Virus record (IMG/VR): IMGVR_UViG_3300021142_000014
Location: 1 to 64,000 of that record
Length of the DNA stretch: 64,000 nt
DNA from: a virus
Strand: one strand, 5' to 3'
This document shows positions 3,376 through 51,765 of the stretch, one piece after another (position 1 is the first letter of the stretch; every line of letters starts with the position of its first letter). Position numbers and translations under genes: made by a program. The notes under the pieces are model-generated. The model made no database searches, was not told the DNA's origin, and worked only from the letters and a program-made list of their open reading frames with translations.

Positions 3376-3674
3376 GACGAATCCTTTCGTATCTATATCC
3401 TATAGTAATTAGCACCCTATTTTACAGTATCTCTGAAAATGCCCCAAGGGGTCCCCGCCATTTTTTTTAAGTGACCTCTTTTCCTATAATAGGGGTCCCA
3501 TTTTCTATAAGTACCCCCCCTATGAAAACCCTTTGTTTCTGGAAAAGGCAAAAACTTGTCATCCTATTTTACGCCTTACATTGAGAGATGAAGTACAAAG
3601 GCAAAAAGGTTATGAACTTCTTTGGACATCATCATTCGGTAATCCTAAGTAAGAAATGAAAGGAGGTGAGTAAC

Positions 3675-3809
3675 ATGCGTATTCCAAAGTTTAACTCTGG
3701 AAGCAAGCCAACGTATCGTGGTCAGTTTAGTACACCTGCATGGCCTGCAGCTAGTGGCAGAACAACGTCATCAGGTAGACGTAATTCACCACGACGTAGA
3801 ACTAAGTAA
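3675..3809 (+). CDS. 44-aa basic Arg/Ser-rich peptide
   Basis: Strong SD (AAAGGAGGTGA); MRIPKFNSG...RRNSPRRRTK; below the ORF-track cutoff. Confidence 0.6.
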   Translation: MRIPKFNSGSKPTYRGQFSTPAWPAASGRTTSSGRRNSPRRRTK

Positions 3810-3862
3810 ACCTCAATGCAGGAGGTCCCATATCAACTCAGAAATGGTTTGGTGTGGTGCCT

Positions 3863-3877
3863 CATGTCGTGAGACAT
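3863..3877 (+). repeat. Repeated GNRA hairpin CATGTCGTGAGACAT (identical at 4289-4303 and 5611-5625; variants at 14318-14331 and 15186-15200)
   Basis: Exact 15-mer three times, always just upstream of an A-rich leader and SD. Confidence 0.85.
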
Positions 3878-3909
3878 CAATTAAACAAGTAAGAAAGTAA
3901 GTGATAAAT

Positions 3910-4071
3910 ATGAGTGTTAACTCGTACACAAGTAATGACTGGAGTAAGTTCATAGATGAGTTTGAATCTGGTGAGCTTGCCCCTCCAATGGTTGAAGTAA
4001 TTGAACCTGAGGAACCACGTCGCACACACTGTTGTTCTGACTGCGGTTGTGAGTGTGGTGGTTGTAACTAA
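3910..4071 (+). CDS. 53-aa peptide with acidic N-terminus and Cys-rich tail (CCSDCGCECGGCN)
   Basis: Manual translation; preceded by the GTAAGAAAG leader typical of this region. Confidence 0.65.
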   Translation: MSVNSYTSNDWSKFIDEFESGELAPPMVEVIEPEEPRRTHCCSDCGCECGGCN

Positions 4072-4089
4072 GTAAGAAAGGAGGTAATC

Positions 4090-4251
4090 ATGGCATCAAG
4101 CAAAAGCTTGATCCAATGTGACACATGCGGACGATGGGACGAAGTTTACGACCAAGACTTAATGTCAATCTTTAAGACGCTTGGCGGTTGTAAATTCGTC
4201 TGTCACCTTTGTGCAATTGAAGCAATGCAACAAAAAGAAGTAAGCCTCTAG
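4090..4251 (+). CDS. 53-aa zinc-ribbon protein
   Basis: SD AGAAAGGAGG; CDTC...CHLC. Confidence 0.75.
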   Translation: MASSKSLIQCDTCGRWDEVYDQDLMSIFKTLGGCKFVCHLCAIEAMQQKEVSL

Positions 4252-4335
4252 ACAGGCTGGCATCACCGGGGTAACTCGGTGGTGGCTACATGTCGTGAGA
4301 CATCTGCAGTAAATAACAAGTAAGAAAGGAAATAT

Positions 4336-4617
4336 ATGTCAGAGACAGTTCTAGCCTGGTCAACAATGATCTGGTCAGATACACCTGAGCCTCAACCCAG
4401 AGAGTTGTATGGAGGTTCACTTCTGTTGGCTGTACAAAACAGATGGAATCGCTCAAGCGACGATCCAGATAGGAAGTTTATACCTGGTCTGCTCGGGGCA
4501 TCACCTACTGTCACTGTTATCAGTGGCACAGGTAATATCGAGGTCGTTATAGCCAACGATCTTAACGAAGTCAGGGTAGAGAATATCAAGCCTAACTTAT
4601 TAGTCATTACAGACTAA
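4336..4617 (+). CDS. Hypothetical protein
   Basis: SD AAGAAAGGA; 93 aa. Confidence 0.7.
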   Translation: MSETVLAWSTMIWSDTPEPQPRELYGGSLLLAVQNRWNRSSDDPDRKFIPGLLGASPTVTVISGTGNIEVVIANDLNEVRVENIKPNLLVITD

Positions 4618-4624
4618 TGGGTTA

Positions 4625-4687
4625 CCCCACCTGGCTATCCACCAGGCTCCTGTTCAATGGAGAGTCAGAGTCAAATCTGACTTGGGG
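4625..4687 (+). ncRNA. tRNA-like cloverleaf (non-canonical)
   Basis: CCCCA/TGGGG closing stem encloses CCTGG/CCAGG, CTCC/GGAG and AGTCAG/CTGACT hairpins; the last has a T-loop-like GTCAAAT; no CCA. Confidence 0.45.
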
Positions 4688-4778
4688 ACGTTACCACTGC
4701 AGGGATGCAGGAGTAACAGCAGTAACCGGTAACTCAGCGGATCTGAGGAAATAAATAAATAAGAGAAGGAAGACTATT

Positions 4779-5510
4779 ATGTCAGAATTCAACGTAACCA
4801 CAACCAACGAGATCATGTCGGAGGAGGATGTAGCTAAACTGTTACACGACTCTTTCTACGTATTCTCGGAGGAGACTGTAGCAGAACACGAGATGCTCGT
4901 GGATGCTGTGCAGATCTTGACTCTAGCAGGTAAAATGCTAGACCAAGTCGCTGCAGCTGCAATTAGTCAGGCTAAGTCAGAGAACAACTACGGCGTAGGT
5001 CGTGTGTTCGATGTCTTTACCACTGACCAATTGAAGTACGGTCGTCACGTAGTTGCAGCTGTTATGGCTCTTACGCCAACAACAGTTGTGACCCGTGCTA
5101 TGTCATACGCTGGTAAGTACAGTAAGTCCCGTCCGCAGATCATGATCAACTCTGAGATCAAGATTGACGGTAGAGGACATAAGTACTACGAGTACATGCG
5201 TAGCTACCACTACGTGACATCCAATGTTCACAGTCCATGGGATGCGTTTAACACCAAGAACGGTGCCAAGCGTACACACAAGTTGTTCATTGCCGGTGAC
5301 CAGAAGTTCTACACCGTCAAGAACGGCAAGCGTGTTGCGGTTGCACTCGGTGCTCCAAGTGAATATGACAAGGAGATCAATGCAGCCCACTCCAGTGGTG
5401 CAGTTACACAATACACACAGGCTCTTAATGAGATCCCACAGGACCTTATCGAGACGCTGAGTGAGAATCAACAGCAGTTGTTCTTGGAAGCATTCAAGAG
5501 CATTAAGTAA
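4779..5510 (+). CDS. Hypothetical protein
   Basis: 243-aa ORF with SD. Confidence 0.85.
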   Translation: MSEFNVTTTNEIMSEEDVAKLLHDSFYVFSEETVAEHEMLVDAVQILTLAGKMLDQVAAAAISQAKSENNYGVGRVFDVFTTDQLKYGRHVVAAVMALTPTTVVTRAMSYAGKYSKSRPQIMINSEIKIDGRGHKYYEYMRSYHYVTSNVHSPWDAFNTKNGAKRTHKLFIAGDQKFYTVKNGKRVAVALGAPSEYDKEINAAHSSGAVTQYTQALNEIPQDLIETLSENQQQLFLEAFKSIK

Positions 5511-5521
5511 TACCCGCAGTA

Positions 5522-5551
5522 AGACCTGAGGTATGTCTATAAACTGCCTCA
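5522..5551 (+). ncRNA. H-type pseudoknot motif (repeated family)
   Basis: AGAC/GTCT stem; loop TGAGGTA pairs with TGCCTCA after an ATAAAC linker. Confidence 0.65.
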
Positions 5552-5608
5552 CCACCCCCCCTGGGGGATACCTTATAGGTGTATTAGGTTCGATTCCTAA
5601 TGGGGTGG
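5552..5608 (+). ncRNA. tRNA-like element (acceptor stem + T-arm)
   Basis: CCACCCC/GGGGTGG stem stacked on ATTAGG-TTCGATT-CCTAAT. Confidence 0.65.
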
Positions 5609-5656
5609 GCCATGTCGTGAGACATTGAATAAATAAACAAGAAAGGAAGTATAGGT

Positions 5657-5971
5657 ATGATAAACGAGCGAGTCGTTATCACATGGATAGATGAGCCTAA
5701 GCTATTTGACAGGGTATTCCGGAAGAAGGAAATGCGCTGTGGAGTAATTAGAGAGTCATTCCCATCTCTAGAGACTGCAGTTGTCTTTATGACAGAAGTC
5801 TATGGAGTTAATCCTAAGACATGGGTTATTAACCGAGAAGGAGATACTCTTTCCGCGAGTAAGGATCTACGTCCCATGGGCGGGGATAAGTCTATTCGTT
5901 TCACGATAACTAATCTAGTTATATCTAATGACATGTTAGACGAACCATTAGGTATCGATCTAGTGTTCTAG
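5657..5971 (+). CDS. Hypothetical protein
   Basis: SD AAGAAAGGA; 104 aa. Confidence 0.75.
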   Translation: MINERVVITWIDEPKLFDRVFRKKEMRCGVIRESFPSLETAVVFMTEVYGVNPKTWVINREGDTLSASKDLRPMGGDKSIRFTITNLVISNDMLDEPLGIDLVF

Positions 5972-6042
5972 TATAGATCGTTCTGCGTGGGACATACGAA
6001 ATATTATACGGGTGATTTAGGTCTCCGCATTTGTACTTCATA

Positions 6043-6058
6043 TGTTCCACGTGGAACA
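6043..6058. promoter_or_regulatory. parS-type palindrome TGTTCCACGTGGAACA
   Basis: Perfect 16-bp palindrome fitting the bacterial parS consensus TGTTYCACGTGRAACA, in a long non-coding spacer. Confidence 0.6.
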
Positions 6059-6544
6059 TTTATATCGATTCGATATATACTAATAAACTAATATCATATT
6101 ATGCTAATAGGTTATTACATTATTGTAATGCCATCCTAAGCTATGTTAAATGGCCTTGTTATTCAAATTCAGGGGCCTAACGTATGTTGCTAATAAGTTA
6201 ATAGCTTATTATGCTAGACACTCAAACCTCCCGAGTGCGACGCATATGTGCATAGTTTAGAATGGCATTAGGATCATGTATCCTATGAAAAAGCGCATAT
6301 TTTGAGACATGTTTACACATATCTAAGGCATCTCTTTTGTAGGTCTATCTACAATCATATGGAGAGTAGTGGTTCTATGTGGAGCGATGTGGTGTAAAGT
6401 GGTGTGGATACAGTCTCTATAGGTAGCTGTGTAGGTAGTATTCTAGTAAGGGCTGGAGTGTTATCTACAGGGTTATCTATGTACGTGAGTACAGTGGTTT
6501 CTCTCCTTGCCCAGGGTTTGGGTGTTAATAATAAGTAAGGAAGT

Positions 6545-6952
6545 ATGTATATGCTAATGTCACTTTACAGCGCATGCTGGAAGTACGATCAAGTAAGTGT
6601 GGAGGGTTCCCCGCTTGGCTATGTCTTTGATGAATGGCTTAAGCTGTTTGGACACCATCACATTCATGTTGGTTTGTTTGATTTGTCAGATGTATTCTCT
6701 GTGGTTCAAATGGAGGTTTCTCCGCAGGGTGTCTGGCAGTTGACTAGCAGTACTCCGCGACTCAGGGATGAAACAGCAATATCTCTCTTTCAGGCTACCA
6801 AGAAGGTAATCCGTTCAGAGGTAAAGCATGGTCCATATGTGTGTGCAAATAGTTGCTCTCACGGCCGGATCGAGGGTTCATTCCTTCACCTAGTACAGAA
6901 TCAACACATAGATTTGTATAACCCAGAGCGTGATGGAGTAAGTCAGTATTGA
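6545..6952 (+). CDS. Hypothetical protein
   Basis: SD AAGTAAGGAAG; 135 aa. Confidence 0.7.
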   Translation: MYMLMSLYSACWKYDQVSVEGSPLGYVFDEWLKLFGHHHIHVGLFDLSDVFSVVQMEVSPQGVWQLTSSTPRLRDETAISLFQATKKVIRSEVKHGPYVCANSCSHGRIEGSFLHLVQNQHIDLYNPERDGVSQY

Positions 6953-7005
6953 TTATTGCACAGGTCTCCTCCCGATAAGGGGAGGGGGCCGATGGGATGA
7001 TTAAT
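6949..7005 (+). repeat. Conserved stem / internal loop / hairpin element, copy 1
   Basis: ATTATTGCACAG-[GC hairpin]-CGATGGGRTGATTAAT, as at 7226-7284 but with a different inner hairpin. Confidence 0.75.
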
Positions 7006-7037
7006 CCCAATATAAACAAGAAAGAGAGTAAGCAATT

Positions 7038-7229
7038 ATGTCTAATCTAGTGTTAGGTTGCAATTGTGGAGATGATGAATGTGGAAACACAAAACTAAAG
7101 ATTGTGGGGATGGGCGGTAATGAAGCCGGTATCCTCCTTTCTGATAGAGGTGTTGAAAATGCATTCTTTGTTGGTGGCGAAGCGTTACAACACGTCATTG
7201 ACAGTTTAACTAGTATCTCTAATAGTTAA
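7038..7229 (+). CDS. Small hypothetical protein (CxCxxxxC)
   Basis: A-rich leader; flanked by the two conserved stem elements. Confidence 0.7.
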   Translation: MSNLVLGCNCGDDECGNTKLKIVGMGGNEAGILLSDRGVENAFFVGGEALQHVIDSLTSISNS

Positions 7230-7284
7230 TTATTGCACAGCTCATCCAGGGTTAACCCCCTGGGTGGGCGATGGGGTGATTAAT
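7226..7284 (+). repeat. Conserved stem / internal loop / hairpin element, copy 2
   Basis: Same flanks as 6949-7005. Confidence 0.75.
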
Positions 7285-7330
7285 AAAGAAGTTAGTAAGA
7301 ATCACTCCAAATAAGAAAGGAGCAAGGTAC

Positions 7331-7858
7331 ATGGAAACACTGCGTAAGCTGTGTCTTTGTACTTCATTGCTACTGATGGGGAATATGGGAATTTCGGGGC
7401 TAGTTTCGGCTGCCCACGCGCCCGACCTCCCACATCAGGTTCAGACAGTAACTAAGGCTAATCTGCACTGGTATGAGAAAATCATGCCAAGTGTGGTTAA
7501 GCACGAAGTTCCTGCTCTGATGCGATGGAATACAATGGCTACAGATGTAACAGCCGCATGGCCTTCTGCAACTGATCCAACTAGACAATTGCCTATTCAC
7601 ATACAAGCACAGTTTGCCTGTATTCGATACCAAGAGTCTAGAAACCACCTAACTAGTGTAAACATTCACTCTGGTGCTGGTGGTTGGTATCAGTTTACTC
7701 CATATATATGGGGTTTTGCTAGAGGGTACATACATGGATTACCTGCTACACCACAGATGGCAACTGGTGAACAACAATCACTTGTGGCTGTCTGGTATTA
7801 CCAACGTAACCACAGTTTGGTTCCCGAATGGGGTCCAGATCTGAGGATATGTAAGTAA
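7331..7858 (+). CDS. Secreted lysozyme-fold lytic transglycosylase (Rpf/SLT-like)
   Basis: Signal-peptide-like N-terminus; CIRYQES (catalytic Glu), GAGGWYQF, EQQ..VA motifs. Confidence 0.8.
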   Translation: METLRKLCLCTSLLLMGNMGISGLVSAAHAPDLPHQVQTVTKANLHWYEKIMPSVVKHEVPALMRWNTMATDVTAAWPSATDPTRQLPIHIQAQFACIRYQESRNHLTSVNIHSGAGGWYQFTPYIWGFARGYIHGLPATPQMATGEQQSLVAVWYYQRNHSLVPEWGPDLRICK

Positions 7859-7865
7859 TACGGTA

Positions 7866-7906
7866 TCCCCGATGGTCGTAATTCAGGTTCGACTCCTGAT
7901 TGGGGA
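7866..7906 (+). ncRNA. tRNA-like minihelix
   Basis: TCCCCGA/TTGGGGA (7 bp), connector TGGTCGTAAT, TCAGG-TTCGACT-CCTGA T-arm. Confidence 0.75.
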
Positions 7907-7980
7907 GCCGGAGCACAAAAGTGCTGCCCTGGTAGAGCAATCTACTAAAAATAAATAAACAAGAAGAAAGTAAGAAAAAC

Positions 7981-8742
7981 ATGAGTGAAGCAACCTATGA
8001 AGGTATTCCAGTTCCACAGTGCTACAAGGACTTGGAGGATGTGCTCAATGCCGGTGTAGACCGTGTCATTTTGTACGGCCCTCCAGGTACTGGTAAGACT
8101 TACTCTGGCCTCAACTTTGGTATTAACCAAGCTGGTGCCGAGCGTCTTATCTGTTCTGAGGATATGACGAATGCCGATGTCTCAGGTTCTGTCATGCCTA
8201 ATGAGCATGGTGGGTTCACATTCGTTCCAGGTGCTGCATTACGTTCCTGGATCGGTGACGGTACTATCGGTGCTCGTCTCGTTGTTGACGAGATTGACAA
8301 AGCCGGTGGTGACGTACAATCCACTTTGTTGGCATTCCTTGACAGTGTTGAGTCTTCATCGTTCAAGCACCCTTACACTGGAGAGACTTATACTCCAAAT
8401 CCAGGGTTCTCAGCGATCATGACTACTAACCTAGAAGACATGGATGAGTTGCCAGTCGCACTCAAGGACCGTTTTCCGATTGCAATCAAGATTGATGCTG
8501 CACATCCTGCTGCATTGATTGCTGCATTGCCACCGGAACTACGTCAACTTGCAGCTACAATCGTAGCTGGTAAGCCAGGTCAACGTGCTTCTCTACGCGC
8601 ATTCAAAGCGTTTGAGCAGCTTCGTAGTACTCCTGACTTCGGTGTAGAACGTGCAGCTCGCATGGTATTCGGTCGTATGGCTGATCCTATCATTGATGCT
8701 CTCAAGATTGGCACTCTAACTCCTGAGTATTCTCTATCATGA
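7981..8742 (+). CDS. MoxR/CbbQ-type AAA+ ATPase
   Basis: Walker A GPPGTGKT, Walker B VVDEIDK, TTN sensor, ALKDRF arginine finger. Confidence 0.9.
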   Translation: MSEATYEGIPVPQCYKDLEDVLNAGVDRVILYGPPGTGKTYSGLNFGINQAGAERLICSEDMTNADVSGSVMPNEHGGFTFVPGAALRSWIGDGTIGARLVVDEIDKAGGDVQSTLLAFLDSVESSSFKHPYTGETYTPNPGFSAIMTTNLEDMDELPVALKDRFPIAIKIDAAHPAALIAALPPELRQLAATIVAGKPGQRASLRAFKAFEQLRSTPDFGVERAARMVFGRMADPIIDALKIGTLTPEYSLS

Positions 8743-10220
8743 GTTATGACGATGACATTCTCAAGGATGAGGTAATGCCCCTACCAGGGGTTATTACCTC
8801 ATTCCGAGAGGATATTCAACAGCCAATCCAATGGGATGTTGTTCCAACTTCTGGTGAGCTAGGCGTAGGCGTAGACTTTAGTGCTGGTGTAATATCTGTT
8901 CCTCTTTCAGGTGACAGTTATTCTCAGCGTTTACAACTACAACAGCTTATCAAAACTCGTGTTTCTCCAGTTGATGACAAAGTATTATCTGAGTTAGCTA
9001 GGCAATACAAGACTAGTGGTGTTACGCTAGATGTTCTTCGTGTTTCCGAGCAAGCTCGCATCAACAAAATAACAGCTCAGTTTGCTGCTGCTAAGGGGAT
9101 AGTCACGGAGCCTGATGGTCACGAAAAGATATTGGGTAAGAGGTTGGCAACAGCCGGTGATATGCGTTCATGGGATAAAGCAGTGGAGTTCACTGCTCAG
9201 AATGCAGGTACGAAAGCTTTCGATTCATTCGCAAGTGGTATTCGTTCTGTTAATCCTGAGTGGAGTAAAGATCTGCGTAATCTCAATAAACGACTGGGTA
9301 AAACCTTCAACGAATCTGTTCAAGAACTCGGCGATACAAGACCACTTAACTTTGGTAATGATATCGTAGGTCCTAGAGGTTTACGTCACACTCTTTATGC
9401 AGCTAATGAAGTTGCTGAGTTTATGTCTGCAGGCTATAGAGCTCCTCAGAGCATTAAAGCCCTCAGAAGAGACTCAGAGGACAAACGAGCTCGTGAGTGG
9501 GGTGATACCAATGAAGATGGTAAGGTTGACTCTAATCAAACTACACTGGATACATCGGATGTACCAGATGACTTCGAATTTGCCTATGATGATGGTGAGT
9601 TTGGTAAGTTAGTCTGGGCTGAAGATCTGCCGTTGACCGTTGAGGTTAAAGGTTATATGCGCCGTAAAAAGCGTGGTATGCAGTCTGGTCGTAGAGTATC
9701 TTATCCTTCACGTCTACTTACTGACCCAGAGCGCAGAATATTTAGCCAGAAGGTTAAAGTCAAAGGTGGTATCGTTGTCGTTGACATATCAGGTTCTATG
9801 AGCTTGAGTCAAGCAGACATTGAATCCATCGTTGAAGCAGCTCCAGCTGCAGTCATTATGGCATATAGTGATTGTGGTGAGAACAGTCCCAATGCTTGGC
9901 TCCTTGCTAACCGTGGTTGGCGAGTAAGTCACGTTGACAACATTGGTGGTATGAACAATGGTGTTGACGGTACAGCATTGACATGGGCAATTCGACACAA
10001 GAAGTATGGTGAAGATATTGTCTGGGTCAGTGACGGTCAGATTACCTCAATGAATGGTGGACAACGAGATGAGTTGGCAATTCAATGTGCTAAGTTAGTC
10101 AAGAAGCACAGGATCATTATGATTCCTAGTGTTCAAGAAGCAGTCGCAATGTTTAAGAAAGGTAAGCTTATCAACAAGCCTGCCGGTCCTATTCGCGATG
10201 CTTTGCTTGGTAAACTTTAA
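8739..10220 (+). CDS. von Willebrand A (MIDAS) domain protein, partner of the AAA+ ATPase
   Basis: VVDISGSMS MIDAS and WVSDG; ATGA overlap with the AAA gene. Confidence 0.85.
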   Translation: MSYDDDILKDEVMPLPGVITSFREDIQQPIQWDVVPTSGELGVGVDFSAGVISVPLSGDSYSQRLQLQQLIKTRVSPVDDKVLSELARQYKTSGVTLDVLRVSEQARINKITAQFAAAKGIVTEPDGHEKILGKRLATAGDMRSWDKAVEFTAQNAGTKAFDSFASGIRSVNPEWSKDLRNLNKRLGKTFNESVQELGDTRPLNFGNDIVGPRGLRHTLYAANEVAEFMSAGYRAPQSIKALRRDSEDKRAREWGDTNEDGKVDSNQTTLDTSDVPDDFEFAYDDGEFGKLVWAEDLPLTVEVKGYMRRKKRGMQSGRRVSYPSRLLTDPERRIFSQKVKVKGGIVVVDISGSMSLSQADIESIVEAAPAAVIMAYSDCGENSPNAWLLANRGWRVSHVDNIGGMNNGVDGTALTWAIRHKKYGEDIVWVSDGQITSMNGGQRDELAIQCAKLVKKHRIIMIPSVQEAVAMFKKGKLINKPAGPIRDALLGKL

Positions 10221-10224
10221 TCAT

Positions 10225-10254
10225 GCGTTCCTTGAGTAACGTTATGTAACTCAA
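10225..10254 (+). ncRNA. H-type pseudoknot motif
   Basis: GCGTT/AACGT stem; loop TTGAGT pairs with ACTCAA. Confidence 0.55.
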
Positions 10255-10355
10255 AGACCTGGGGGTCTATCAAGCGACCCTCAGGTGCCATGCATATCAT
10301 ATGGTATGCAGTGTGCTAAATAGCACTGTAGTAAGAAAAAGCAAGGAGTAAGTAG

Positions 10356-10733
10356 ATGGAAGAGTTTAATCTCGACTTGATGCTTGACGAAGCAGCAAAT
10401 GCACGTATTGCCCACGCTGATTACCTTAATCGGGTTAAAGATTGGGGTGTTGAAATGGGGCAAATCATGGAGCCATTCACTTCAGTTGCCATGATCCTTA
10501 TGGATGATGACAGGGATGAGGATGATTTTAATCTTATGTGCAGAATGTTTCCTTTAGGACTTCAATTAGCCGTTGATAAGTTAAATGAATTCTATGAAAC
10601 AATGCAGAGTGAAGCAATAAAAGTCCTTGGTGCACCATTTCAACTTCATGATCAACACCATCCTTTGTGTGGAGAAAATGATAATAAATGTGGACACCAA
10701 GATCACTACATGCCCAAGCAAGAAGACGAGTAA
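10356..10733 (+). CDS. Hypothetical protein, probable paralog of 11888-12220
   Basis: SD AAGGAG; shares LDE..R..(H/Y).D and G.PF with 11888-12220; C-terminal DQHHPLC motif. Confidence 0.8.
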   Translation: MEEFNLDLMLDEAANARIAHADYLNRVKDWGVEMGQIMEPFTSVAMILMDDDRDEDDFNLMCRMFPLGLQLAVDKLNEFYETMQSEAIKVLGAPFQLHDQHHPLCGENDNKCGHQDHYMPKQEDE

Positions 10734-10763
10734 TCGTCATAAATAAGAAAGAAAGTAAGTAAT

Positions 10764-11051
10764 ATGTCCAAAGAAACAAGACAAGCAATACTTGGAATGA
10801 AGAATTGCATTGCTCAAGAACAAGACATTGATCAGTTACGTGATGCAGCTTTTGGTGTTATTGAGCTGCTCACTGATGTTGATCGGTTAATTGAACAAGA
10901 AAAAGAGCAAAGTGGCAAAGTCATTCTACAACTTGTAGGTGTAATTGAAACTGCAAGTAAAGCTCTTGATCAAGCAGGTATTGAATTGTTTAATACTGAC
11001 ACAGTAAAAGAATTGGTAGATTTTGCCAATAAAGTTACTAAAGTTAATTAA
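10764..11051 (+). CDS. Hypothetical helical protein
   Basis: A-rich leader; 95 aa. Confidence 0.75.
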   Translation: MSKETRQAILGMKNCIAQEQDIDQLRDAAFGVIELLTDVDRLIEQEKEQSGKVILQLVGVIETASKALDQAGIELFNTDTVKELVDFANKVTKVN

Positions 11052-11870
11052 TCATTGACATGAATGAAATGCTCTCATAAACTCTCTAAGACTCAGGTCT
11101 GTTGAGATGGGTTATGAAGAGTGCTTTTCCTTCTTGTTGTTGCATCTTCATAGCCCTTCTGGACAGGCCAGGGGGCTTTATTGATCTGTGAAAAAGCCAG
11201 CTATGTCAACCCGCCAGATTGGATGTTATATTAATCCAGAGTGCCTAGTTGCAAGTCTTGCATTTCACAAACCCAGCCTAAAGGGGAAGCTTAGGTAGGA
11301 AGTAACATCCTTAACAACACACTATGAGGTCTAGGCCACTGACCCAAAAAACGTGGCAATCCCATATAACTTTTATCGGTTATATGGGACCTAGTCACAT
11401 TATGGTACAAGACTTAAACGGTTCCATACGCTAGCATCGTACTGCAACCCACTATAAAGGGAAGTTTATAGAAGGTTTACCATTTCACCTAAATAATATA
11501 ATAAAGGGGCACATATGCCTAAAATATGTTGTGGGCTTACTACAATAAACGCGCCATACTTCTTGGTTGGTAGGTTAGGAACCAAGGTCGCTTTGAGCAT
11601 AGCGTCGGGAATAAAGCTCAACCTATACATGCTGTCATGGTGTGTATAGGTGCCAAGTCCTGAACAAGACTATACCACAGTTGCAGGTGTAAAAACTGTT
11701 CAAAACTCAGCATGTGGAGAAGCACATGTAGGTTAAATCACCTTAAGTATAACCTGTTGGTGGTATAGGTGAGCCAACTACCTTAGAGTGTGAAGGCAAC
11801 TCTGGTGTTGTGAGTGGATCCTTATCGAACTCTCCGTCCTGGGTATGACGTTAAAGTGCCCACTTAAATA
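11052..11870 (+). ncRNA. Candidate ~820-nt large structured ncRNA (or a cluster of small structured RNAs)
   Basis: No ORF of 60 aa or more; dense hairpins, five or more pseudoknots, long-range helices such as 11236-11246 with 11794-11805. Confidence 0.65.
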
Positions 11871-11887
11871 ATAAACAAGGAGTAAGT

Positions 11888-12220
11888 ATGGATGAGAAAG
11901 AATTCAATTCTTTACTCGATGAAGAAGTGTCTACACGTTTACATTACGGAGATTCTGTAGGTAAACTAAAGACAATATTCATGGATATGGCAACACCAAT
12001 CTTATGGCTGAAAGGTGCCAGTGAAAACTGGGAAGACCTTGATGAGGATTCTATGGTTGTTGTTGGTAAATCATTAGAAGAATTGGTTGAATATGTCCGT
12101 GCAACTATGAAAGAACTATTGGATGTAATTCAAGATAGTGCTACATATTTGTATGGCGAACCATTCAATGAAGAATCATTCCATGGAGCAAACTGTCAAT
12201 GTGACAGAGATCATAAGTAA
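11888..12220 (+). CDS. Hypothetical protein, probable paralog of 10356-10733
   Basis: SD AAGGAG; C-terminal H/C cluster. Confidence 0.8.
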   Translation: MDEKEFNSLLDEEVSTRLHYGDSVGKLKTIFMDMATPILWLKGASENWEDLDEDSMVVVGKSLEELVEYVRATMKELLDVIQDSATYLYGEPFNEESFHGANCQCDRDHK

Positions 12221-12233
12221 GAAAGGAATTATC

Positions 12234-12467
12234 ATGAATGTTAAAGGCGTTCAAACTGGAGCGGAGTTAGTTATTACTATTAACTTTGATAACGTTAATC
12301 AGTCAGAAATCTTTAATAGGCTATTTGTAGAATGTTTACAAAAAATGGCTGATGAAGATGGCTCTCAATTAATGGATATCAAGGGAGATAGAGTAAAAAA
12401 CCTTCGTCAAACAGAAATAAGTGAATCAACAAGTAAATTATCGGAGAAATTTAATAATTGGATATAG
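12234..12467 (+). CDS. Hypothetical protein (start moved to MNVKG)
   Basis: SD AGAAAGGA before 12234. Confidence 0.7.
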   Translation: MNVKGVQTGAELVITINFDNVNQSEIFNRLFVECLQKMADEDGSQLMDIKGDRVKNLRQTEISESTSKLSEKFNNWI

Positions 12468-12474
12468 GAGTTAA

Positions 12475-12870
12475 ATGTCTCGAATGGTAACATGGCGTCG
12501 GGATAGAGAAGAAGCAATGTGGAAAGCAAAGACTGCAGGATATTCAATTAAGTTTGATTTAAAACTTGAATTATCTGCAGGTATTCAAAGTGCATTGATA
12601 AATAAAAATGCAGTGCTTAAAGTAATGCGTCCTATCCCAGGCACCAATAAGAAAGAATTGTTATTTAGTAAAGAATTTTCGTCTAGCTGGATAGCTAAAG
12701 ATACTATAGATTCTTTACTATTTTTATGCTATAGTCTTTTTATAGTTTTAGGAGAAAATGAACAAGCTGAACAGTGGTTTATCGATACTCTAAGTAATTT
12801 TAAAGGTGTGGATTACCCTGAACAACCAGATCCATCAGATTATACTAAAATGTTTAAATATTATAAGTAA
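12475..12870 (+). CDS. Hypothetical protein
   Basis: SD AGGAG; 131 aa. Confidence 0.75.
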   Translation: MSRMVTWRRDREEAMWKAKTAGYSIKFDLKLELSAGIQSALINKNAVLKVMRPIPGTNKKELLFSKEFSSSWIAKDTIDSLLFLCYSLFIVLGENEQAEQWFIDTLSNFKGVDYPEQPDPSDYTKMFKYYK

Positions 12871-12876
12871 TAAATA

Positions 12877-12936
12877 ATCGATAACCCCGTGAGGGGTCTG
12901 TATGGGATGACCTCCATGCACTGATGAGATAGGTCA
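12877..12936 (+). ncRNA. Type II hammerhead ribozyme with loop pseudoknot; GAUAA core variant; predicted cut after C12898
   Basis: ATC-GATAA-CCCC(GTGA)GGGG-TC / TGTATGG..CCATGCA-CTGATGA-GAT; loop TGACCT pairs with 3' AGGTCA. Confidence 0.85.
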
Positions 12937-12952
12937 AATTAAGAAGGATAAT

Positions 12953-13348
12953 ATGGATAATGAAATGTCAGATGAACTGAAGTTGCAACTCATTAAAACT
13001 CAGTTTAATAACTTGACAATGTGTATTAAAATGCAAATCACAATTCAGACTACTCTTGAAGCATACCGACAGTATGTTGCTGGTGAGTTGCCAGAAGTGT
13101 TCAACGATGTTGTTGAAACTGAAGCATTTAAAGACACTTTTAATCAAGCTGTTCAAGCTAGTACTGAAGTTCTTCAGAATCTTATTACGTTTGCAGATAA
13201 CGTAGGTTCTGTCTTTGGAATTGATTTCAGAGCACAATTGCCTAAAAACAATGATGAACTTAATCAGATGACTAAAGATTTACATGATGAATTGCAACAA
13301 CAAAGAGAATCCGATCAAGAATTTGATTGGGAATTTAAAGACAAATAA
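12953..13348 (+). CDS. Hypothetical protein
   Basis: SD AAGAAGGA; 131 aa. Confidence 0.8.
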   Translation: MDNEMSDELKLQLIKTQFNNLTMCIKMQITIQTTLEAYRQYVAGELPEVFNDVVETEAFKDTFNQAVQASTEVLQNLITFADNVGSVFGIDFRAQLPKNNDELNQMTKDLHDELQQQRESDQEFDWEFKDK

Positions 13349-13378
13349 TTAATGTATTAAATAAAGTAAGGAAATAAC

Positions 13379-13537
13379 ATGACAGTAAAAACATTTATAT
13401 GTCCACTTTGTAAAGAATCTTGGACAGGGCATCCCGCTTTGTCTAGGGTTGATAACAAGACTGATATTTGTTCACCTTGTGGCATGCAAGAAGGTTTTAA
13501 TGACTACTTTGGTGTACCATTGCAGTCAATCGATTAA
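13379..13537 (+). CDS. 52-aa zinc-finger protein (CPLC...PALSR.DN...ICSPCG)
   Basis: Manual translation; SD AAGGA. Confidence 0.75.
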   Translation: MTVKTFICPLCKESWTGHPALSRVDNKTDICSPCGMQEGFNDYFGVPLQSID

Positions 13538-13540
13538 TTA

Positions 13541-13604
13541 GTCGATAACCCCCGTGAGGGGTATTCATAGGATTGACCGCCTATGGACTGATGAGACAGG
13601 TCAA
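13541..13604 (+). ncRNA. Type II hammerhead ribozyme; GAUAA variant; predicted cut after A13563
   Basis: GTC-GATAA-stem III-TA / TTCATAGG..CCTATGGA-CTGATGA-GAC; pseudoknot TTGACC/GGTCAA. Confidence 0.85.
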
Positions 13605-13630
13605 AGTAAGAAATAAGAAAGGAAGTAAGT

Positions 13631-14263
13631 ATGTCAGAAATGATTTGGGTAGCCAAACGTGACGGCAGTGGTTGGATTTCTAATCGCACACGTGACGTAG
13701 TTGACCTAGCATTTACTGTAAGCCGTGAACATGGTGATTACTATAGTGAAGTGTTGATTCGTTCAACATGGCACGATGGTGATGATGCGCGTGCGACTAG
13801 AATTATTGGTCGTATGTATTTTGCTACTAACAAAAATGCTAAGGCAATTATTGAAGACATTATTAAAGAAGCCAATGGAACCTTCATCGTTAAGGATGCT
13901 GGTCGTGAATGGTTGCTTAATAAAATGCTTAGTATATCCATTGATGAAGGTTTAAAAGGTAAAAGTATTTTGTTTCCTTATGCAATCATTAATCATAAGT
14001 ATATACGTAAAACACCGCCAGTTCCAACTACAACTGTAACGCCAACAACGGCTCCAGTTAGCCATGGATTGTTTAAGCCTGTTATGACTAAAACAACTAT
14101 AGATGAATCAGTTGAAGCTGAGGTGGAACAACGTTTAGCATCAATGTCATCTAACATGATAGAAACTATTACTGAAGTAACAGAAACTGTAAAACCAGTA
14201 ATAGAAACACCAAAGACTATTGTTATCAATGGTAAAGAAATAACTATCGGTTGGCCTAGCTAA
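13631..14263 (+). CDS. Hypothetical protein with Pro/Thr linker
   Basis: SD AAGAAAGGA; 210 aa. Confidence 0.8.
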   Translation: MSEMIWVAKRDGSGWISNRTRDVVDLAFTVSREHGDYYSEVLIRSTWHDGDDARATRIIGRMYFATNKNAKAIIEDIIKEANGTFIVKDAGREWLLNKMLSISIDEGLKGKSILFPYAIINHKYIRKTPPVPTTTVTPTTAPVSHGLFKPVMTKTTIDESVEAEVEQRLASMSSNMIETITEVTETVKPVIETPKTIVINGKEITIGWPS

Positions 14264-14270
14264 CTGAGCA

Positions 14271-14314
14271 ACCCCACCATGGTGGCTTGAGACAGTTCAA
14301 TTCTGTCTTGGGGT
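14271..14314 (+). ncRNA. tRNA-like minihelix
   Basis: ACCCCA/TGGGGT stem, TGGT-containing connector, GACAG-TTCAATT-CTGTC T-arm; followed by a GNRA hairpin. Confidence 0.65.
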
Positions 14315-14368
14315 GCTACGTCGGGAGACGTTAGAGTAAGTAAATAAACAAACAAGTAAAGGAATAAT

Positions 14369-14722
14369 ATGAAAGCAATAGTAGCATCTGCTGATTTTAA
14401 ACTTGATGTAGTTGAGTTTAATGAAAGTAAATCATATGAAACTATACGCGATGCAGTAGATGGCATGTTTGATTGTGTTCGTCTACCTAGTTTAGGTGTA
14501 GACATGTGGGTTAATGATGAAGGTAAATTAAATAACCTTGATTTAAACCCATTTGGTACCGCATTGTGGGTTTCAGAATATGGTATGACTGATATTGTTG
14601 TTGGTGATGTAATTATTACCGGTGGTACTGATGGTGAAGGTAAAACATTAGGTATGACCAATGAGCAGGCAATTGAAGTATTAAAATCTGCTCGTGCAAT
14701 GATGGATGAATTAATTAAATAA
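14369..14722 (+). CDS. DUF3846-like phage protein
   Basis: AVDG..DCV, MWVNDEGK, IVVGDVIITG motifs. Confidence 0.75.
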   Translation: MKAIVASADFKLDVVEFNESKSYETIRDAVDGMFDCVRLPSLGVDMWVNDEGKLNNLDLNPFGTALWVSEYGMTDIVVGDVIITGGTDGEGKTLGMTNEQAIEVLKSARAMMDELIK

Positions 14723-14750
14723 CAAATATTAAGTAAGAAAGGTAAGCAAG

Positions 14751-15134
14751 ATGGGATTAGATCAGTATGCATATGCTGTTATGCCGCATCCAGATAATAC
14801 AGATTTGAGTTATGTCTGGACTCATGAACAATATGAAGGCAAAGTCTTTTTAATTGCTCAATGGCGTAAACATCCTAATATTCAAGGTTGGATGGAAAAG
14901 CTATATGAAAGTAAAGGTGGAGAACGTGTTTTCAACTGTCAACCAGTTCGAGTGACATTTCAAGACCTTATTAATCTTAAGTATGCTGTAATAAATGAAA
15001 AGCTTCCAGTAACTCAAGGCTTCTTCTTTGGTGAAAGTCTACCAGAAGATAGAGAAGATGACCTTAAATTTATTGAGGATGCTATGAAAGCTATCGGACA
15101 AGATATGGAAATCTATTACGATAGTTGGTGGTAA
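14751..15134 (+). CDS. Conserved phage hypothetical protein (MGLDQY...WRKHP...YYDSWW)
   Basis: Recurrent phage family motifs; SD present. Confidence 0.8.
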   Translation: MGLDQYAYAVMPHPDNTDLSYVWTHEQYEGKVFLIAQWRKHPNIQGWMEKLYESKGGERVFNCQPVRVTFQDLINLKYAVINEKLPVTQGFFFGESLPEDREDDLKFIEDAMKAIGQDMEIYYDSWW

Positions 15135-15141
15135 TAAGGTA

Positions 15142-15183
15142 GCCTTGATGGTCGTAGAGTAGGTTCGACTCCTACTCAAGGCA
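15142..15183 (+). ncRNA. tRNA-like minihelix
   Basis: GCCTTGA/TCAAGGC (7 bp), connector TGGTCGTAGA, GTAGG-TTCGACT-CCTAC; same geometry as 7866-7906 with compensatory stem changes. Confidence 0.8.
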
Positions 15184-15234
15184 CTACGTCGGGATGACGT
15201 TAAACAAACAAACAAGTAAGAAAGTAGGATAAAC

Positions 15235-15651
15235 ATGGGAGACCGTGGACAAGTACAACTTATTGGTACATATGGATCAGAGCATTCTATCTATCTATAT
15301 ACCCATTGGGGAGCTAGTCATCTAGAAAACGTTGTAGCTGACGCTATAGTACGTGGCAAGGGTCGTTGGAGTGATGACGAATACCTTAACCGTATTATCT
15401 TCAGTGAAATGATTAAAGATGATGTAATGTCTGATACTGGATATGGTATCGGACTTTCTCTTCATGGTGATACATGGAAGTTAGTTGTTGTAAATCACAT
15501 TGACCAAACTGTTGGTATTAAGGTAGTTAACTATGATAAAGTTGACTGGCAAAACTACAACGAAGACGATGTTGTATGGGATTGGGAACTAGAGCCAGTA
15601 CCTTTTGAGGTGTTTGTTTATCTTAATAGTTTAGTTACAACAAAGGAATAA
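15235..15651 (+). CDS. Conserved phage hypothetical protein (MGDR...YLYTHWG)
   Basis: Recurrent phage family motif; leader and SD. Confidence 0.8.
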   Translation: MGDRGQVQLIGTYGSEHSIYLYTHWGASHLENVVADAIVRGKGRWSDDEYLNRIIFSEMIKDDVMSDTGYGIGLSLHGDTWKLVVVNHIDQTVGIKVVNYDKVDWQNYNEDDVVWDWELEPVPFEVFVYLNSLVTTKE

Positions 15652-15653
15652 TA

Positions 15654-15818
15654 ATGGGTAAAAAATTAGACAAAGCTTTTTATCAATTGAGCAATGAAAC
15701 TCGTCATCACATTAACTTAGCAATGGCTAAGCAAACTGATTTTGAGAATGGATTTGCTCAAGGATTTGCAGAAGCATTACGCATAGTAGCAAATATAAGA
15801 GAGAAGGAGAATGAGTAA
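15654..15818 (+). CDS. 54-aa hypothetical protein
   Basis: Manual translation MGKKLDK...IREKENE; SD AAAGGA. Confidence 0.6.
   Translation: MGKKLDKAFYQLSNETRHHINLAMAKQTDFENGFAQGFAEALRIVANIREKENE
15769..15809 (+). repeat. 41-bp exact direct repeat (second copy 16070-16110)
   Basis: CAGAAGCATTACGCATAGTAGCAAATATAAGAGAGAAGGAG occurs twice. Confidence 0.9.
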
Positions 15819-15993
15819 AACATATATATATAATGTACAGTTTGTGTTTGACTATGCTGTGCTCATAACTACGATTACATCTGACTCTGAAGATGACGAT
15901 GTAATTGAAAAAGAAGCATTGGGATGGTTAGAACACAATGGATTTGCTATTAAAAATACTATCAATGATATAATTATTGAGGAAATAGAATAG
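15811..15993 (+). CDS. Small acidic hypothetical protein
   Basis: 60-aa ORF between the 41-bp repeats. Confidence 0.65.
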   Translation: MSKTYIYNVQFVFDYAVLITTITSDSEDDDVIEKEALGWLEHNGFAIKNTINDIIIEEIE

Positions 15994-15999
15994 TAAAGA

Positions 16000-16060
16000 A
16001 TCGAAACGCCGGGAGGCGTCTGTATGGATTAGCCACCATGCATTGATAAGATAGGCTAAT
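16000..16060 (+). ncRNA. Type II hammerhead ribozyme; UUGAUAA (U3-A8) core; predicted cut after C16020
   Basis: ATC-GAAA-CGCC(GGGA)GGCG-TC / TGTATGG..CCATGCA-TTGATAA-GAT; pseudoknot ATTAGCC/GGCTAAT. Confidence 0.85.
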
Positions 16061-16112
16061 AGTAAGGAACAGAAGCATTACGCATAGTAGCAAATATAAG
16101 AGAGAAGGAGTA

Positions 16113-16301
16113 ATGAAAGAATACTACACAAGAGTTTCTATGGACGTTCTTGTTATAGCAAAAAATCCTGAAGAAGCAACTGATAAATTGAATCAATGGT
16201 TGGATGGTCAACAATTGATTGACAAATCAACAGGGTCTGACTTCTGGTGGGACGACATTAATTGGGATGACTGGACTGCTGTAGAATCAGAAAAAGAATA
16301 A
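16113..16301 (+). CDS. Small Trp/Asp-rich hypothetical protein
   Basis: SD GAAGGAG. Confidence 0.7.
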   Translation: MKEYYTRVSMDVLVIAKNPEEATDKLNQWLDGQQLIDKSTGSDFWWDDINWDDWTAVESEKE

Positions 16302-16302
16302 A

Positions 16303-16548: not shown

Positions 16549-16666
16549 CTTTAAATGATTTTGGTTTAAAATCACCAACTACATTAGCAGAAGCTGAAGC
16601 TGTTATATCTAATTTATTAGATCGTTGTGATCAATTAGAAGAAATAATTATAGAAATGGAAACATA

Positions 16667-16870: not shown

Positions 16871-17046
16871 GGAACAAATATGCAAAAACATACTGCAATA
16901 GAACAATGGGAAATATACAAAGTATTACAATGTGTTCTTGAAGCAAAGAAAAATATCCAAGGAGGTGAGTACAATAAAGCTATACAATCCCTTAATTCAT
17001 GTTTATGGATGATGGGTATAGATGGATTAGAATAAGTTAGGATAAT

Positions 17047-17294: not shown

Positions 17295-17353
17295 ATCGAA
17301 ACGCCGGGAGGCGTTTATGGGAGATTGCCTACCCATACTGATGATGATAGGCT
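17295..17353 (+). ncRNA. Type II hammerhead ribozyme; GUU triplet, extra U after CUGAUGA; predicted cut after U17315
   Basis: ATC-GAAA-CGCC(GGGA)GGCG-TT / TATGGG..CCCATA-CTGATGA-T-GAT; pseudoknot GCCT/AGGC. Confidence 0.85.
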
Positions 17354-17378
17354 ATAATAAAGAAAGGAGGAATAAACT

Positions 17379-51764: not shown

Positions 51765-51765
51765 G

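Follow-up and report, generated by a model that had tools for sequence, protein, structure and literature searches.

Two gaps between genes of the window (the whole stretch of DNA from an uncultured phage analysed here, 64,000 nucleotides) carry a ~43-nt motif, R1, which judging from its aligned sequences is an RNA structure under selection, with the dimensions of a tRNA top half and a canonical T-loop. We propose, with a probability of about 0.6, that R1 is a putative cut mark at which RNase P and/or RNase Z would divide polycistronic phage RNA. The clear R1 members in the window are only those starting at positions 7866 and 15142. All elements are listed in Table 1 and referred to by their first position.

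Table 1. Structured RNA elements in gaps between genes of the window.
Feature	Coordinates	Strand	Basis or remark
Cloverleaf-shaped element, not an R1 member	4625..4689	+	minimum-energy fold is a cloverleaf
Larger tRNA-like element, not an R1 member	5552..5612	+	match to the R1 T-arm alone, 13.6 bits
R1 tRNA top-half mimic, copy 1	7866..7908	+	56.7 bits, E 4e-17
Hammerhead type II-like ribozyme	12877..12940	+	Rfam RF02276, 31.1 bits (below its gathering score, 37), E 0.002-0.005
Hammerhead type II-like ribozyme	13541..13607	+	pattern scan and alignment
Degenerate R1 member	14271..14316	+	6+6 bp, then G-C
GNRA hairpin ACGUC GGGA GACGU	14318..14331	+	directly 3' of element 14271
R1 tRNA top-half mimic, copy 2	15142..15184	+	61.9 bits, E 6.5e-19
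Hammerhead type II-like element	16000..16062	+	core UUGAUAA, canonical GAAAC
Hammerhead type II-like ribozyme	17295..17357	+	canonical GAAAC and CUGAUGA

Copy 7866 reads TCCCCGA / TGGTCGTAAT / TCAGG TTCGACT CCTGA / TTGGGGA (7866-7906) and copy 15142 reads GCCTTGA / TGGTCGTAGA / GTAGG TTCGACT CCTAC / TCAAGGC (15142-15182). The stems differ in sequence and are paired in both; the preliminary description had the coordinates (7866-7906 and 15142-15183) and sequences right. Each copy lies 7 nt past the stop codon of an ORF (7331-7858 and 14751-15134, respectively). Copy 7866 consists of the outer stem, the GAUGGUCGUA bulge, the inner stem and a UUCGACU loop, then G-C; in copy 15142 the 3' side is A-C. 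Their match to R1 is far above chance, the bit scores being partly so by construction since both copies belong to the covariance model (41 sequences of other viral contigs plus these two; search space 64 kb). The two real tRNA genes of the phage encode CCA, but the mimics do not.

R1 folds into an outer stem of 5 bp, with GAUGGUCGUA as a conserved 5' bulge, and an inner stem of 7 bp capped by a UUCGAYU loop; on the 3' side come a purine and then C. The 5-bp and 7-bp stems thus make 12 stacked pairs, the same as a tRNA top half. The preliminary description had instead assigned exact 7-bp and 5-bp stems. Among 43 distinct R1 sequences 97.7% of the cells are paired with the 5+7 split versus 89.9% with 7+5, and the column pair 7:35 is paired in just 8. 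Family-wide covariation favours the 5+7 split with GAUGGUCGUA as bulge, copy 15142 being compatible with both and copy 7866 slightly better with 7+5. Double changes occur at 10 of the 12 pairs, and shuffled or register-slid alignments come nowhere near 97.7%. In 18 divergent members that the search pattern does not cover, (G/A)A(U)GGU..A and UUCGAYU are retained. The stems total ~12 bp in R1 (5+7), in element 14271 (6+6) and in an extra element of a related phage (7+5). On the 3' side a purine comes first in 60/70 contexts and C comes second in 64/70. Homologs retain the connector, and UGG, in a bare bulge or a mini-hairpin loop, is its sole feature common to nearly all variants.

Orthologs were compared in the related phage, at 65–96% DNA identity. 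Compensatory changes appear in every element that differs; at 7866 the inner stem is changed and its pairing kept, while copy 15142 shows no difference in related contigs L037 and L055. These data bear on the reading of the elements as functionless today, being either decayed tRNA genes or what is left of tRNA-targeting integration sites. The T-arm GGTTCGAnTCC is indeed that of ordinary tRNAs, and a variant in the relative attains 23.9 bits with the Rfam tRNA model, short of the threshold of 29. The chance of this reading is nevertheless close to negligible: over 100 distinct sequences, of phages and bacteria that are unrelated, share a 42-43-nt architecture with a conserved non-tRNA bulge and covarying stems, the D and anticodon arms leave no trace, compensatory change holds the pairing of orthologs, and the “acceptor” stem has both strands, in contrast to attachment-site remnants. 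The covariation contradicts this reading, and the divergent stems exclude recent duplicates of one pseudogene. Neither ARAGORN nor the Rfam tRNA model calls a tRNA at 7866 or 15142.

In the related phage an extra gene of ~470 nt lies directly past the 7866 ortholog and has its own tRNA-like element at its end; the window aligns to both flanking elements across the T-loop. Such a layout would suit a DNA-level joint for cassette exchange among phages (mosaic boundaries), the RNA fold being incidental. This seems very unlikely, because the stems covary despite divergence of the primary sequence and G:U pairs are confined to one strand, a sign of selection at the RNA level. In addition, the identical core (bulge and loop) is merely about 10 + 11 nt, the placement relative to genes is strand-specific, and cassettes would be exchanged as readily if each gene carried its own 3' processing signal.

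The elements 14271, 5552 and 4625, previously taken as looser versions of the mimic, are real conserved structures, as judged from compensatory changes in the related-phage ortholog of each; what is not supported is a single family of all five elements. Element 14271 (ACCCCA / CCAUGGUGGCUUG, a 13-nt bulge / AGACAG UUCAAUU CUGUCU / UGGGGU) lies 7 nt past the stop of ORF 13631-14263. It is not matched by the R1 model in the search of the window, and its syntenic ortholog (CCCCA AAUGGUUGUA AGAUAG UUCGAUU...), which shows one compensatory change (C:G to U:A), scores 26.7 bits on R1. Element 5552 has an outer stem of 7 bp, a pair of mini-hairpins of which the first carries a UGG loop, and a 6-bp stem with the T-loop UUCGAUU. 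Its ortholog has 5 bp, the hairpin GCCC-UGGU-GGGC, 7 bp and UUCGAUU, so that the stems are of wholly different sequence with pairing kept. Element 5552 continues with G-CCA (5609-5612) and its ortholog lacks CCA; the former statement that no element encodes CCA is thus not strictly true. Element 4625, with a 5-bp closing stem, three hairpins and a weak T-like loop GUCAAAU followed by A-C, shows three compensatory differences from the relative (closing stem, hairpin 1 and hairpin 3). It has no match in the R1 model, Rfam or ARAGORN, and its tRNA-likeness rests mainly on topology.

The covariance-model search of phages and the comparison with Rfam, both suggested beforehand, gave many phage matches and no Rfam family; the motif has no annotation in the phage records checked either. 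R1 is a widespread phage RNA family without a name so far, matched at 56 IMG/VR loci and in 77 bacterial-genome stretches, and also found in cultured phages of Streptomyces, Gordonia, Mycobacterium and Corynebacterium; its bearers are mostly phages of Actinomycetota. Beyond this genome it occupies two interchangeable contexts, ~7 nt past stop codons or among VIPR guide-RNA (GGYNN) arrays. A same-strand frame of at least 80 codons ends no more than 30 nt upstream in 25 of the 44 non-array contexts (median 7 nt), versus 6/44 on the mirrored strand and 8.6% for random positions. In annotated cultured phages R1 lies in intergenic gaps, in the same orientation as the flanking genes. Of the 77 non-array copies in bacterial genomes, just 16 come after a frame of 80 codons or more, which speaks against the cut mark. 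No intrinsic terminators were found at the element-bearing gaps. Among more distant relatives, the homolog of ORF 15235-15651 is preceded by a gap that contains either a variant mimic, with a UGGU mini-hairpin, or, where the unit starts at a consensus promoter, no mimic.

Arrays account for 29 of 73 R1 contexts, and in the Gordonia phage MakoManhole R1 stands both after a gene and within a GGYNN array; this genome has no such array. GGYNN arrays are described as VIPR vrRNAs, some of them reportedly hammerhead-interspersed, and structured RNA between the GGY/NN units is thought to free the units (bioRxiv 10.64898/2026.04.26.720920). R1 likewise holds the inter-unit position in many actinophage arrays, and the operon of the window contains R1 alongside hammerhead-like elements. 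Unlike the hammerheads, R1 has no known self-cleaving motif and would depend on an enzyme of the host. Neither tRNA nor RNase P comes up in the three VIPR preprints.

In 98% of cells the bulge GGUCG could pair with the loop CGACU, so the loop might sit in a pseudoknot rather than in a T-loop fold; bulge and loop are paired in the energy-minimised fold predicted for the gap at 7866. It is conceivable, if doubtful, that R1 is a cap or handle for 3' ends, a compact hairpin-pseudoknot kept on the upstream mRNA or vrRNA that would block 3' exonucleases or bind a protein, a general RNase freeing the end. Published vrRNAs end in a ~40-nt structured cap tail, that of SUSP1 being a conserved 3' pseudoknot directly past the guide repeats (bioRxiv 10.64898/2026.04.26.720927); R1 takes this place in actinophage arrays, and ~7 nt past stop codons fits a minimal stabilising 3' UTR. 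The tail of SUSP1 stays part of the ribonucleoprotein. The SUSP1 genome has no R1 match, which speaks against the cap. Moreover, the pairing of GGUCG with CGACU shows no double compensatory change, for or against, and a full 5-bp helix would leave no linker to the 3' strand of the inner stem, which looks sterically impossible. Variants retain UGG(U), often as a mini-hairpin loop, yet lose the GUCG/CGAC complementarity, and a cap accounts for neither the purine-C flank nor the 12-bp length.

We favour the cut mark. The elements would mimic the acceptor/T-arm top half of a tRNA inside the long plus-strand RNA transcribed from the small genes at about 4.2-18.9 kb. A coaxial helix of 12 bp with T-loop, purine “discriminator” and C is the shape seen by RNase P, RNase Z and the CCA-adding enzyme. 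RNase P would cut at the 5' edge and RNase Z past the discriminator, parting adjacent cistrons, and the UGG-containing bulge probably docks on the T-loop like G18-G19 of the tRNA D-loop. Enzymes, cut positions and this tertiary contact are what we infer; for the proposal that UGG rebuilds the elbow, its presence in nearly all variants holds and fits such docking. The end of the upstream mRNA would lie within the compact helix or just short of it, and the downstream mRNA would begin with a small GNRA hairpin before the ribosome-binding site; in other phages R1 would separate VIPR guide RNAs. Putative cleavage of mRNA, as first proposed, is indirectly supported by the strand-specific placement after stop codons, the spacing of VIPR units and the hammerhead-like folds in equivalent gaps.

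A model hairpin with a 12-bp helix and a T-loop suffices as RNase P substrate in vitro, the T-loop aiding accuracy (PMC11143913). R1 differs from such hairpins by its conserved 5' bulge after pair 5 and by ending in purine-C instead of RCCA; its cleavage is a prediction. Against the cut mark, the bulge exits the helix after pair 5, in tRNA after pair 7; the base just 5' of R1 is in most cases A or C rather than U; R1 lacks the 3' CCA, which RNase P of the E. coli type prefers; and a 5'-side RNase P cut would give the upstream mRNA a ~7-nt unprotected tail.

The excised ~43-nt minihelix could itself be the product, a mini-tRNA, possibly CCA-tailed, acting as decoy or sponge for host factors or defence toxins that target tRNA acceptor ends or T-arms. 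Its 12-bp helix, T-loop and purine-C tail are exactly what acceptor-end enzymes read, genomes hold multiple copies, and the bearers are mostly phages of Actinomycetota, where acceptor-end-modifying toxins occur. We nonetheless regard this as unlikely: nothing ties R1 copies to defence or counter-defence genes, and 2-5 copies in a genome of ~100 kb would be poor competitors of the tRNA pool without very high expression. Having no anticodon arm, R1 cannot decoy anticodon nucleases, and most known tRNA-targeting defences cut that arm. A decoy would also not need strict placement after stops or between guides, nor equivalence with hammerheads.

In mascRNA (MALAT1), a tRNA-like module cut out by tRNA-processing enzymes sets the 3' end of the upstream RNA. 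GUT15 of Arabidopsis (PMC6152437) is a tRNA-like module in a longer transcript, excised by the same kind of enzymes. Both are full cloverleaves of eukaryotic nuclei, whereas R1 is a multi-copy phage motif without D and anticodon arms. For the t-elements of plant mitochondria, a role as RNase P/Z signals at the ends of mRNAs has been proposed (Forner et al. 2007, PMC1920247). Like them and the tRNA punctuation of animal mitochondria, the elements are tRNA-like folds, not functional tRNAs, at mRNA ends inside longer transcripts, but in tailed phages of bacteria. Whereas t-elements are idiosyncratic cloverleaf relics, R1 forms a single conserved ~43-nt family, a top half with a fixed 10-nt bulge.

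Four other gaps of the operon, of the same type and in the plus-strand block only, carry the hammerhead-like elements, which would serve the same role. Elements 12877, 13541, 16000 and 17295 follow ORFs 12475-12870, 13379-13537, 15811-15993 and 17047-17289, respectively. Element 12877 has a CUGAUGA core, a GUC site and an extra U in the GAAA core; the ortholog of 13541 in the relative scores 24 bits; 16000 has the changes C3 to U and G8 to A. The extra U is present in two of the elements and CUGAUGA is altered in one, so that their cleavage activity is putative; complementarity between loop I and the 3' tail is kept though the sequence varies. Reading of the sequence also places GNRA-like hairpins at 5612-5625, 7912-7925 and 15186-15200. 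Downstream of each GNRA hairpin lies an A-rich AAAUAAACAAG tract and then the ribosome-binding site of the next gene, and the hairpin may cap the downstream cistron at its 5' end.

The window represents the first 64 kb of a 99.7-kb viral genome. The minus strand codes for a DnaE-type polymerase, DnaB, a primase and RecA, and the plus strand carries a block of about 30 small genes from ~4.2 to 18.9 kb. The DnaE polymerase is only ~35% identical to its Rhodococcus and Mycobacterium phage counterparts, no close relative was found among cultured phages, and the phage database gave neither a near-DNA nor a protein match to the region. PHROGs and Pfam returned no informative family for the genes flanking the tRNA-like elements, and relatives of the ORF 4779-5510, sought in IMG/VR, were not found. 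All five elements, named here by their first position, lie in gaps of the plus-strand block, on the coding strand. None of the five shows a terminator-like site (G+C-rich hairpin followed by a U tract); their 3' flanks consist of (A/G)C, a hairpin and an A-rich tract. Promoter-like sites in the block are no commoner than in shuffled sequence.

Coordinates of the RNA elements and other features in the window
Feature	Positions	Strand	Nucleotides 3' of the outer stem, or location
tRNA-like element 4625	4625..4689	plus	A-C
tRNA-like element 5552	5552..5612	plus	G-C
tRNA-like element 7866	7866..7908	plus	G-C
tRNA-like element 14271	14271..14316	plus	G-C
tRNA-like element 15142	15142..15184	plus	A-C
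GNRA-type hairpin	5612-5625		
GNRA-type hairpin	14318-14331		
GNRA-type hairpin	15186-15200		
Hammerhead type II-like element	12877-12940		gap of the plus-strand block
Hammerhead type II-like element	13541-13607		gap of the plus-strand block
Hammerhead type II-like element	16000-16062		gap of the plus-strand block
Hammerhead type II-like element	17295-17357		gap of the plus-strand block
A+T-rich gap, 573 nt	5972-6544		
Second intergenic module, first copy	6953-7010		directly after a stop codon
Second intergenic module, second copy	7230-7290		directly after a stop codon
Structured gap, 836 nt	11052-11887		
Conserved part of the 836-nt gap	11099-11472		
tRNA-Arg(TCT) and tRNA-Tyr(GTA)	51681-51841	minus	

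The preliminary description had drawn 7866-7906 and 15142-15182 with an outer stem of 7 bp and an inner one of 5 bp, the 10-nt connector TGGTCGTA(AT/GA) between them and TTCGACT as the loop. The sequences are as stated and can be drawn in this way, but the 7+5 geometry is not the best one for the family. The fold was tested by pair counts on 43 distinct sequences. With a 5-bp outer stem, a 10-nt 5' bulge GAUGGUCGUA, a 7-bp inner stem and a 7-nt UUCGAYU loop, 97.7% of the cells are paired and changes on both sides occur in 10 of the 12 pairs; the exact 7+5 register leaves 89.9% of the cells paired, its seventh pair forming in only 8/43 sequences. The 12 stacked pairs of the favoured fold equal the total of the acceptor and T-stem of a tRNA. 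A covariance model of this ~43-nt motif (R1), built from the 43 sequences including both window copies, scores 61.9 bits on 15142 and 56.7 bits on 7866, and its scan of the 99.7-kb genome gave no other match above 14 bits. Searching IMG/VR for the exact pattern of connector and T-loop yielded 56 loci, nearly all with the same 42-nt layout and with stems that differ yet stay paired. These loci and the R1 scores indicate that 7866 and 15142, in both of which the GAUGGUCGUA bulge is exact, truly belong to a widespread family rather than resembling it by chance. The invariance of bulge and loop in the 43-sequence alignment is partly a matter of construction. Nevertheless, the model also brought in 18 members that the pattern had missed; these retain (G/A)A(U)GGU..A and UUCGAYU, so that the conservation of the connector among homologs holds.

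Directly 3' of the R1 helix a purine stands in 60 of 70 contexts, followed by C in 64/70. This flank resembles tRNA positions 73-74; CCA is not encoded, unlike in the two genuine tRNA genes of the phage, which lie 1 base apart and both encode it. ARAGORN calls only these two, tRNA-Tyr and tRNA-Arg at 51.7 kb, and RF00005 gave no match at E up to 10 over 3000-17000. With both curated and permissive thresholds Rfam has no family for the five elements: its sole match, ‘Plastid-ycf2’, is antisense and sub-threshold and reflects the T-arm. Covariation contradicts an origin of R1 in decayed tRNA genes, which is hardly credible. Another reading, that R1 is retained as a 3' cap or pseudoknot handle, is unlikely. 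The bulge GGUCG and the loop CGACU are indeed pairing-compatible in 98% of the cells, but the pair counts contain no double compensatory change, variants lose the complementarity and, by our own reasoning, a full GGUCG/CGACU helix would leave no linker to the inner stem.

Two near-identical IMG/VR contigs from a related phage (“the relative”), 65-96% identical to the window across the plus-strand block, carry orthologs of all five elements. That of 15142 is identical, and that of 7866 has kept the bulge, while its 7-bp inner stem differs and is paired throughout. The window copy of 14271 has 6+6 bp, a 13-nt bulge CCAUGGUGGCUUG instead of GAUGGUCGUA and a UUCAAUU loop, while its ortholog, at 26.7 bits, can be recognised as R1. 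Element 5552 and its ortholog have only the T-arm and the outline in common: their stems are paired and unrelated in sequence, and one or two mini-hairpins (GCCC-UGGU-GGGC in the relative) replace the bulge. Element 4625 is a three-hairpin cloverleaf with compensatory differences from the relative in 3 of 4 helices; its T-loop is poor, GG is missing from its loop, and hairpins again take the place of the bulge. Neither 5552 nor 4625 fits the R1 model. Thus the family of five first proposed is reduced to two clear members (7866 and 15142) and a degenerate one (14271), the other two being tRNA-like folds that are analogous to R1 but separate from it. Yet another variant occurs in a more distant relative (67% protein identity), in the gap before its homolog of ORF 15235-15651, and is composed of 5 bp, an AUCC-UGGU-GGAU hairpin, 7 bp and UUCGAUU. 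In three further relatives (L165-L167, ~1400-1500) a consensus TTGACA-17-TATAAT promoter and a hairpin are found there, and no mimic. UGG(U) is the one connector feature common to all variants except 4625. This fits, without proving it, the D-loop-like contact with the T-loop that was suggested in the preliminary description.

At the locus of the relative opposite window 7866-7908 (L067, minus strand, ~11700-12330), an extra ORF of ~470 nt directly follows the 7866 ortholog. It ends in a 7+5 tRNA-like element of its own (ACTGCAG / CATGGAGGATGTT / GTGGG TTCGATT CCCAC / CTGCAGT, then G-C), and across the T-loop both elements align with the window sequence. The bracketing of this extra gene by two mimics is what could speak for R1 as a DNA-level recombination joint, a reading that we hold to be highly improbable.

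Folding of every gap of the plus-strand block revealed four hammerhead-like elements, and a hammerhead pattern scan of the rest of the genome, on both strands, found none. They were compared with the type II model RF02276 (core CUGAUGA, GAAA, an NUH site, stems I and III, open stem II), on which 12877-12940, the best of the four copies, scores 31.1 bits for a gathering threshold of 37. Stems I and III covary; stem II, either AUC/GAU or GUC/GAC, varies among copies and stays paired, and loop I likewise keeps its pairing with the 3' tail, through sequences that vary from copy to copy. The GAAA core contains an extra U in two copies and also in their orthologs, and one copy reads UUGAUAA, which alters both the C3 and G8 positions; these two nucleotides pair in the active hammerhead fold. 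Because of the extra U and the UUGAUAA core we consider these elements putative ribozymes. Downstream of each tRNA mimic come a small hairpin of GNRA type, an A-rich tract and then the ribosome-binding site of the following gene. The hairpins (e.g. ACGUC-GGGA-GACGU) resemble stem III of the hammerhead-like elements (GCC-GGGA-GGC) and might be remnants of ribozymes whose place mimics have taken. In one and the same operon some gaps hold mimics and others hammerhead-like elements, an alternation that argues for both solving the same problem and makes the window a useful natural comparison of the two.

Among 73 non-redundant viral-contig contexts of R1, 29 are inside tandem GGYNN pentamer arrays. 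In 25 of the 44 non-array contexts an open frame of 80 codons or more on the same strand ends at most 30 nt upstream (median 7 nt), against 6/44 for the mirrored strand and 8.6% for random positions, all by crude open-frame rules. R1 is found in interchangeable contexts, after genes and within arrays. The window genome is a low-G+C bearer of R1 without VIPR arrays, no GGY/NN pentamer array being present anywhere in its 99.7 kb. The VIPR preprints (bioRxiv 10.64898/2026.04.26.720920, 10.64898/2026.04.26.720927) describe vrRNAs made of 9-16 YNNGG repeats and, behind these, a structured ~40-nt tail, and also hammerhead-interspersed arrays; tRNA and RNase P are unmentioned. R1 is not the tail of the SUSP1 vrRNA: the SUSP1 genome has no R1 copy, its only matches being to the T-arm and lying in its tRNA cluster.

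Unannotated copies are present in cultured Streptomyces, Gordonia, Mycobacterium and Corynebacterium phages; they point the same way as the annotated genes on either side in Streptomyces phage Dagobah and in Gordonia phage MakoManhole. In the latter (PQ184807.1) one unannotated copy (1050-1091) lies 10 nt after gene 79, and two more (2290-2545) lie in a GGYNN array that follows a gene annotated as ‘DNA binding protein’. Bacterial genomes, taken one per species, contain the exact pattern in 77 stretches, mostly from Streptomyces and other Actinomycetota, with a few from Bacteroidales, Planctomycetota, Gemmatimonadota and Rhodanobacter bins; the outer stem is perfect in 73/81 of these copies and the purine-C tail present in 71/81. 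In the unrelated actinobacterial genomes of Nonomuraea and Herbidospora a second conserved segment, caatagcgacgacgaagggccaccgcctcccg...aaaaggcggcc, is located ~100 nt upstream of R1, and may be another RNA ending in R1.

We propose, on the indirect evidence of placement and context and with a probability of about 0.6, that R1 is a tRNA top-half mimic read by host endonucleases acting on tRNA ends, and that it divides polycistronic RNA. The comparisons establish the fold of R1, its conservation, its placement and its interchangeable contexts; which enzymes act, where they cut and the tertiary contact we infer. Cleavage by a hammerhead would give an upstream RNA ending in a hairpin and a downstream RNA with a structured 5' end, and a cut between the mimic and the GNRA hairpin would give products of the same architecture. 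This parallel leads us to favour an RNase Z-like cut 3' of the mimic, whether or not RNase P also cuts on its 5' side. It is quite improbable that R1 combines two roles, namely a portable, host-read ‘cut here’ cassette, interchangeable with ribozymes, that frees mRNAs and VIPR guide RNAs, and an excised ~43-nt minihelix completed with CCA to serve as a mini-tRNA decoy for acceptor-end enzymes or toxins. A role of excised R1 as a decoy is in itself very improbable. As a cut cassette, R1 would be the natural counterpart of engineered tRNA-guide RNA arrays.

Punctuation by the tRNA machinery is well documented in organelles and in a few eukaryotic non-coding RNAs; mitochondrial tRNA punctuation and mascRNA are both such tRNA-like processing signals. 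The concept is also known from plant mitochondrial t-elements, tRNA-like folds proposed as processing signals (PMC1920247), and hairpins made of acceptor and T-arm are cut by RNase P (PMC11143913). Searches of the literature found no description of the R1 motif in phages, and Rfam 15 lacks a corresponding model. A phage RNA family that is conserved across several phyla, keeps the top half only, with a fixed bulge, and stands after genes and between guide RNAs appears undescribed. If RNase P or RNase Z cut R1, phages of several bacterial phyla would punctuate their operons and free their guide RNAs through host tRNA maturation. This would account for conserved intergenic sequence that many cultured actinobacteriophages carry without annotation, fill in the processing step missing from VIPR arrays devoid of ribozymes, and provide a natural 43-nt processing module for synthetic operons.

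Three other intergenic features of the plus-strand block were observed. The 836-nt gap, whose plus strand contains no ORF of at least 50 aa, is predicted to be highly structured; its conserved part is 90.7% identical to the relative, compared with 67-77% for the flanking genes, and the gap, to which Rfam gives no match, is a candidate for a large non-coding RNA. In the A+T-rich gap a palindrome (GTTCCACGTGGAAC) lies inside a long predicted stem and TTATGCTAATA-like words are repeated; a regulatory region or an origin that divides the block may lie here. The second intergenic module, present twice, is composed in order of TTATTGCACAG, a strong G+C hairpin and CGATGGG(A/G)TGATTAAT.
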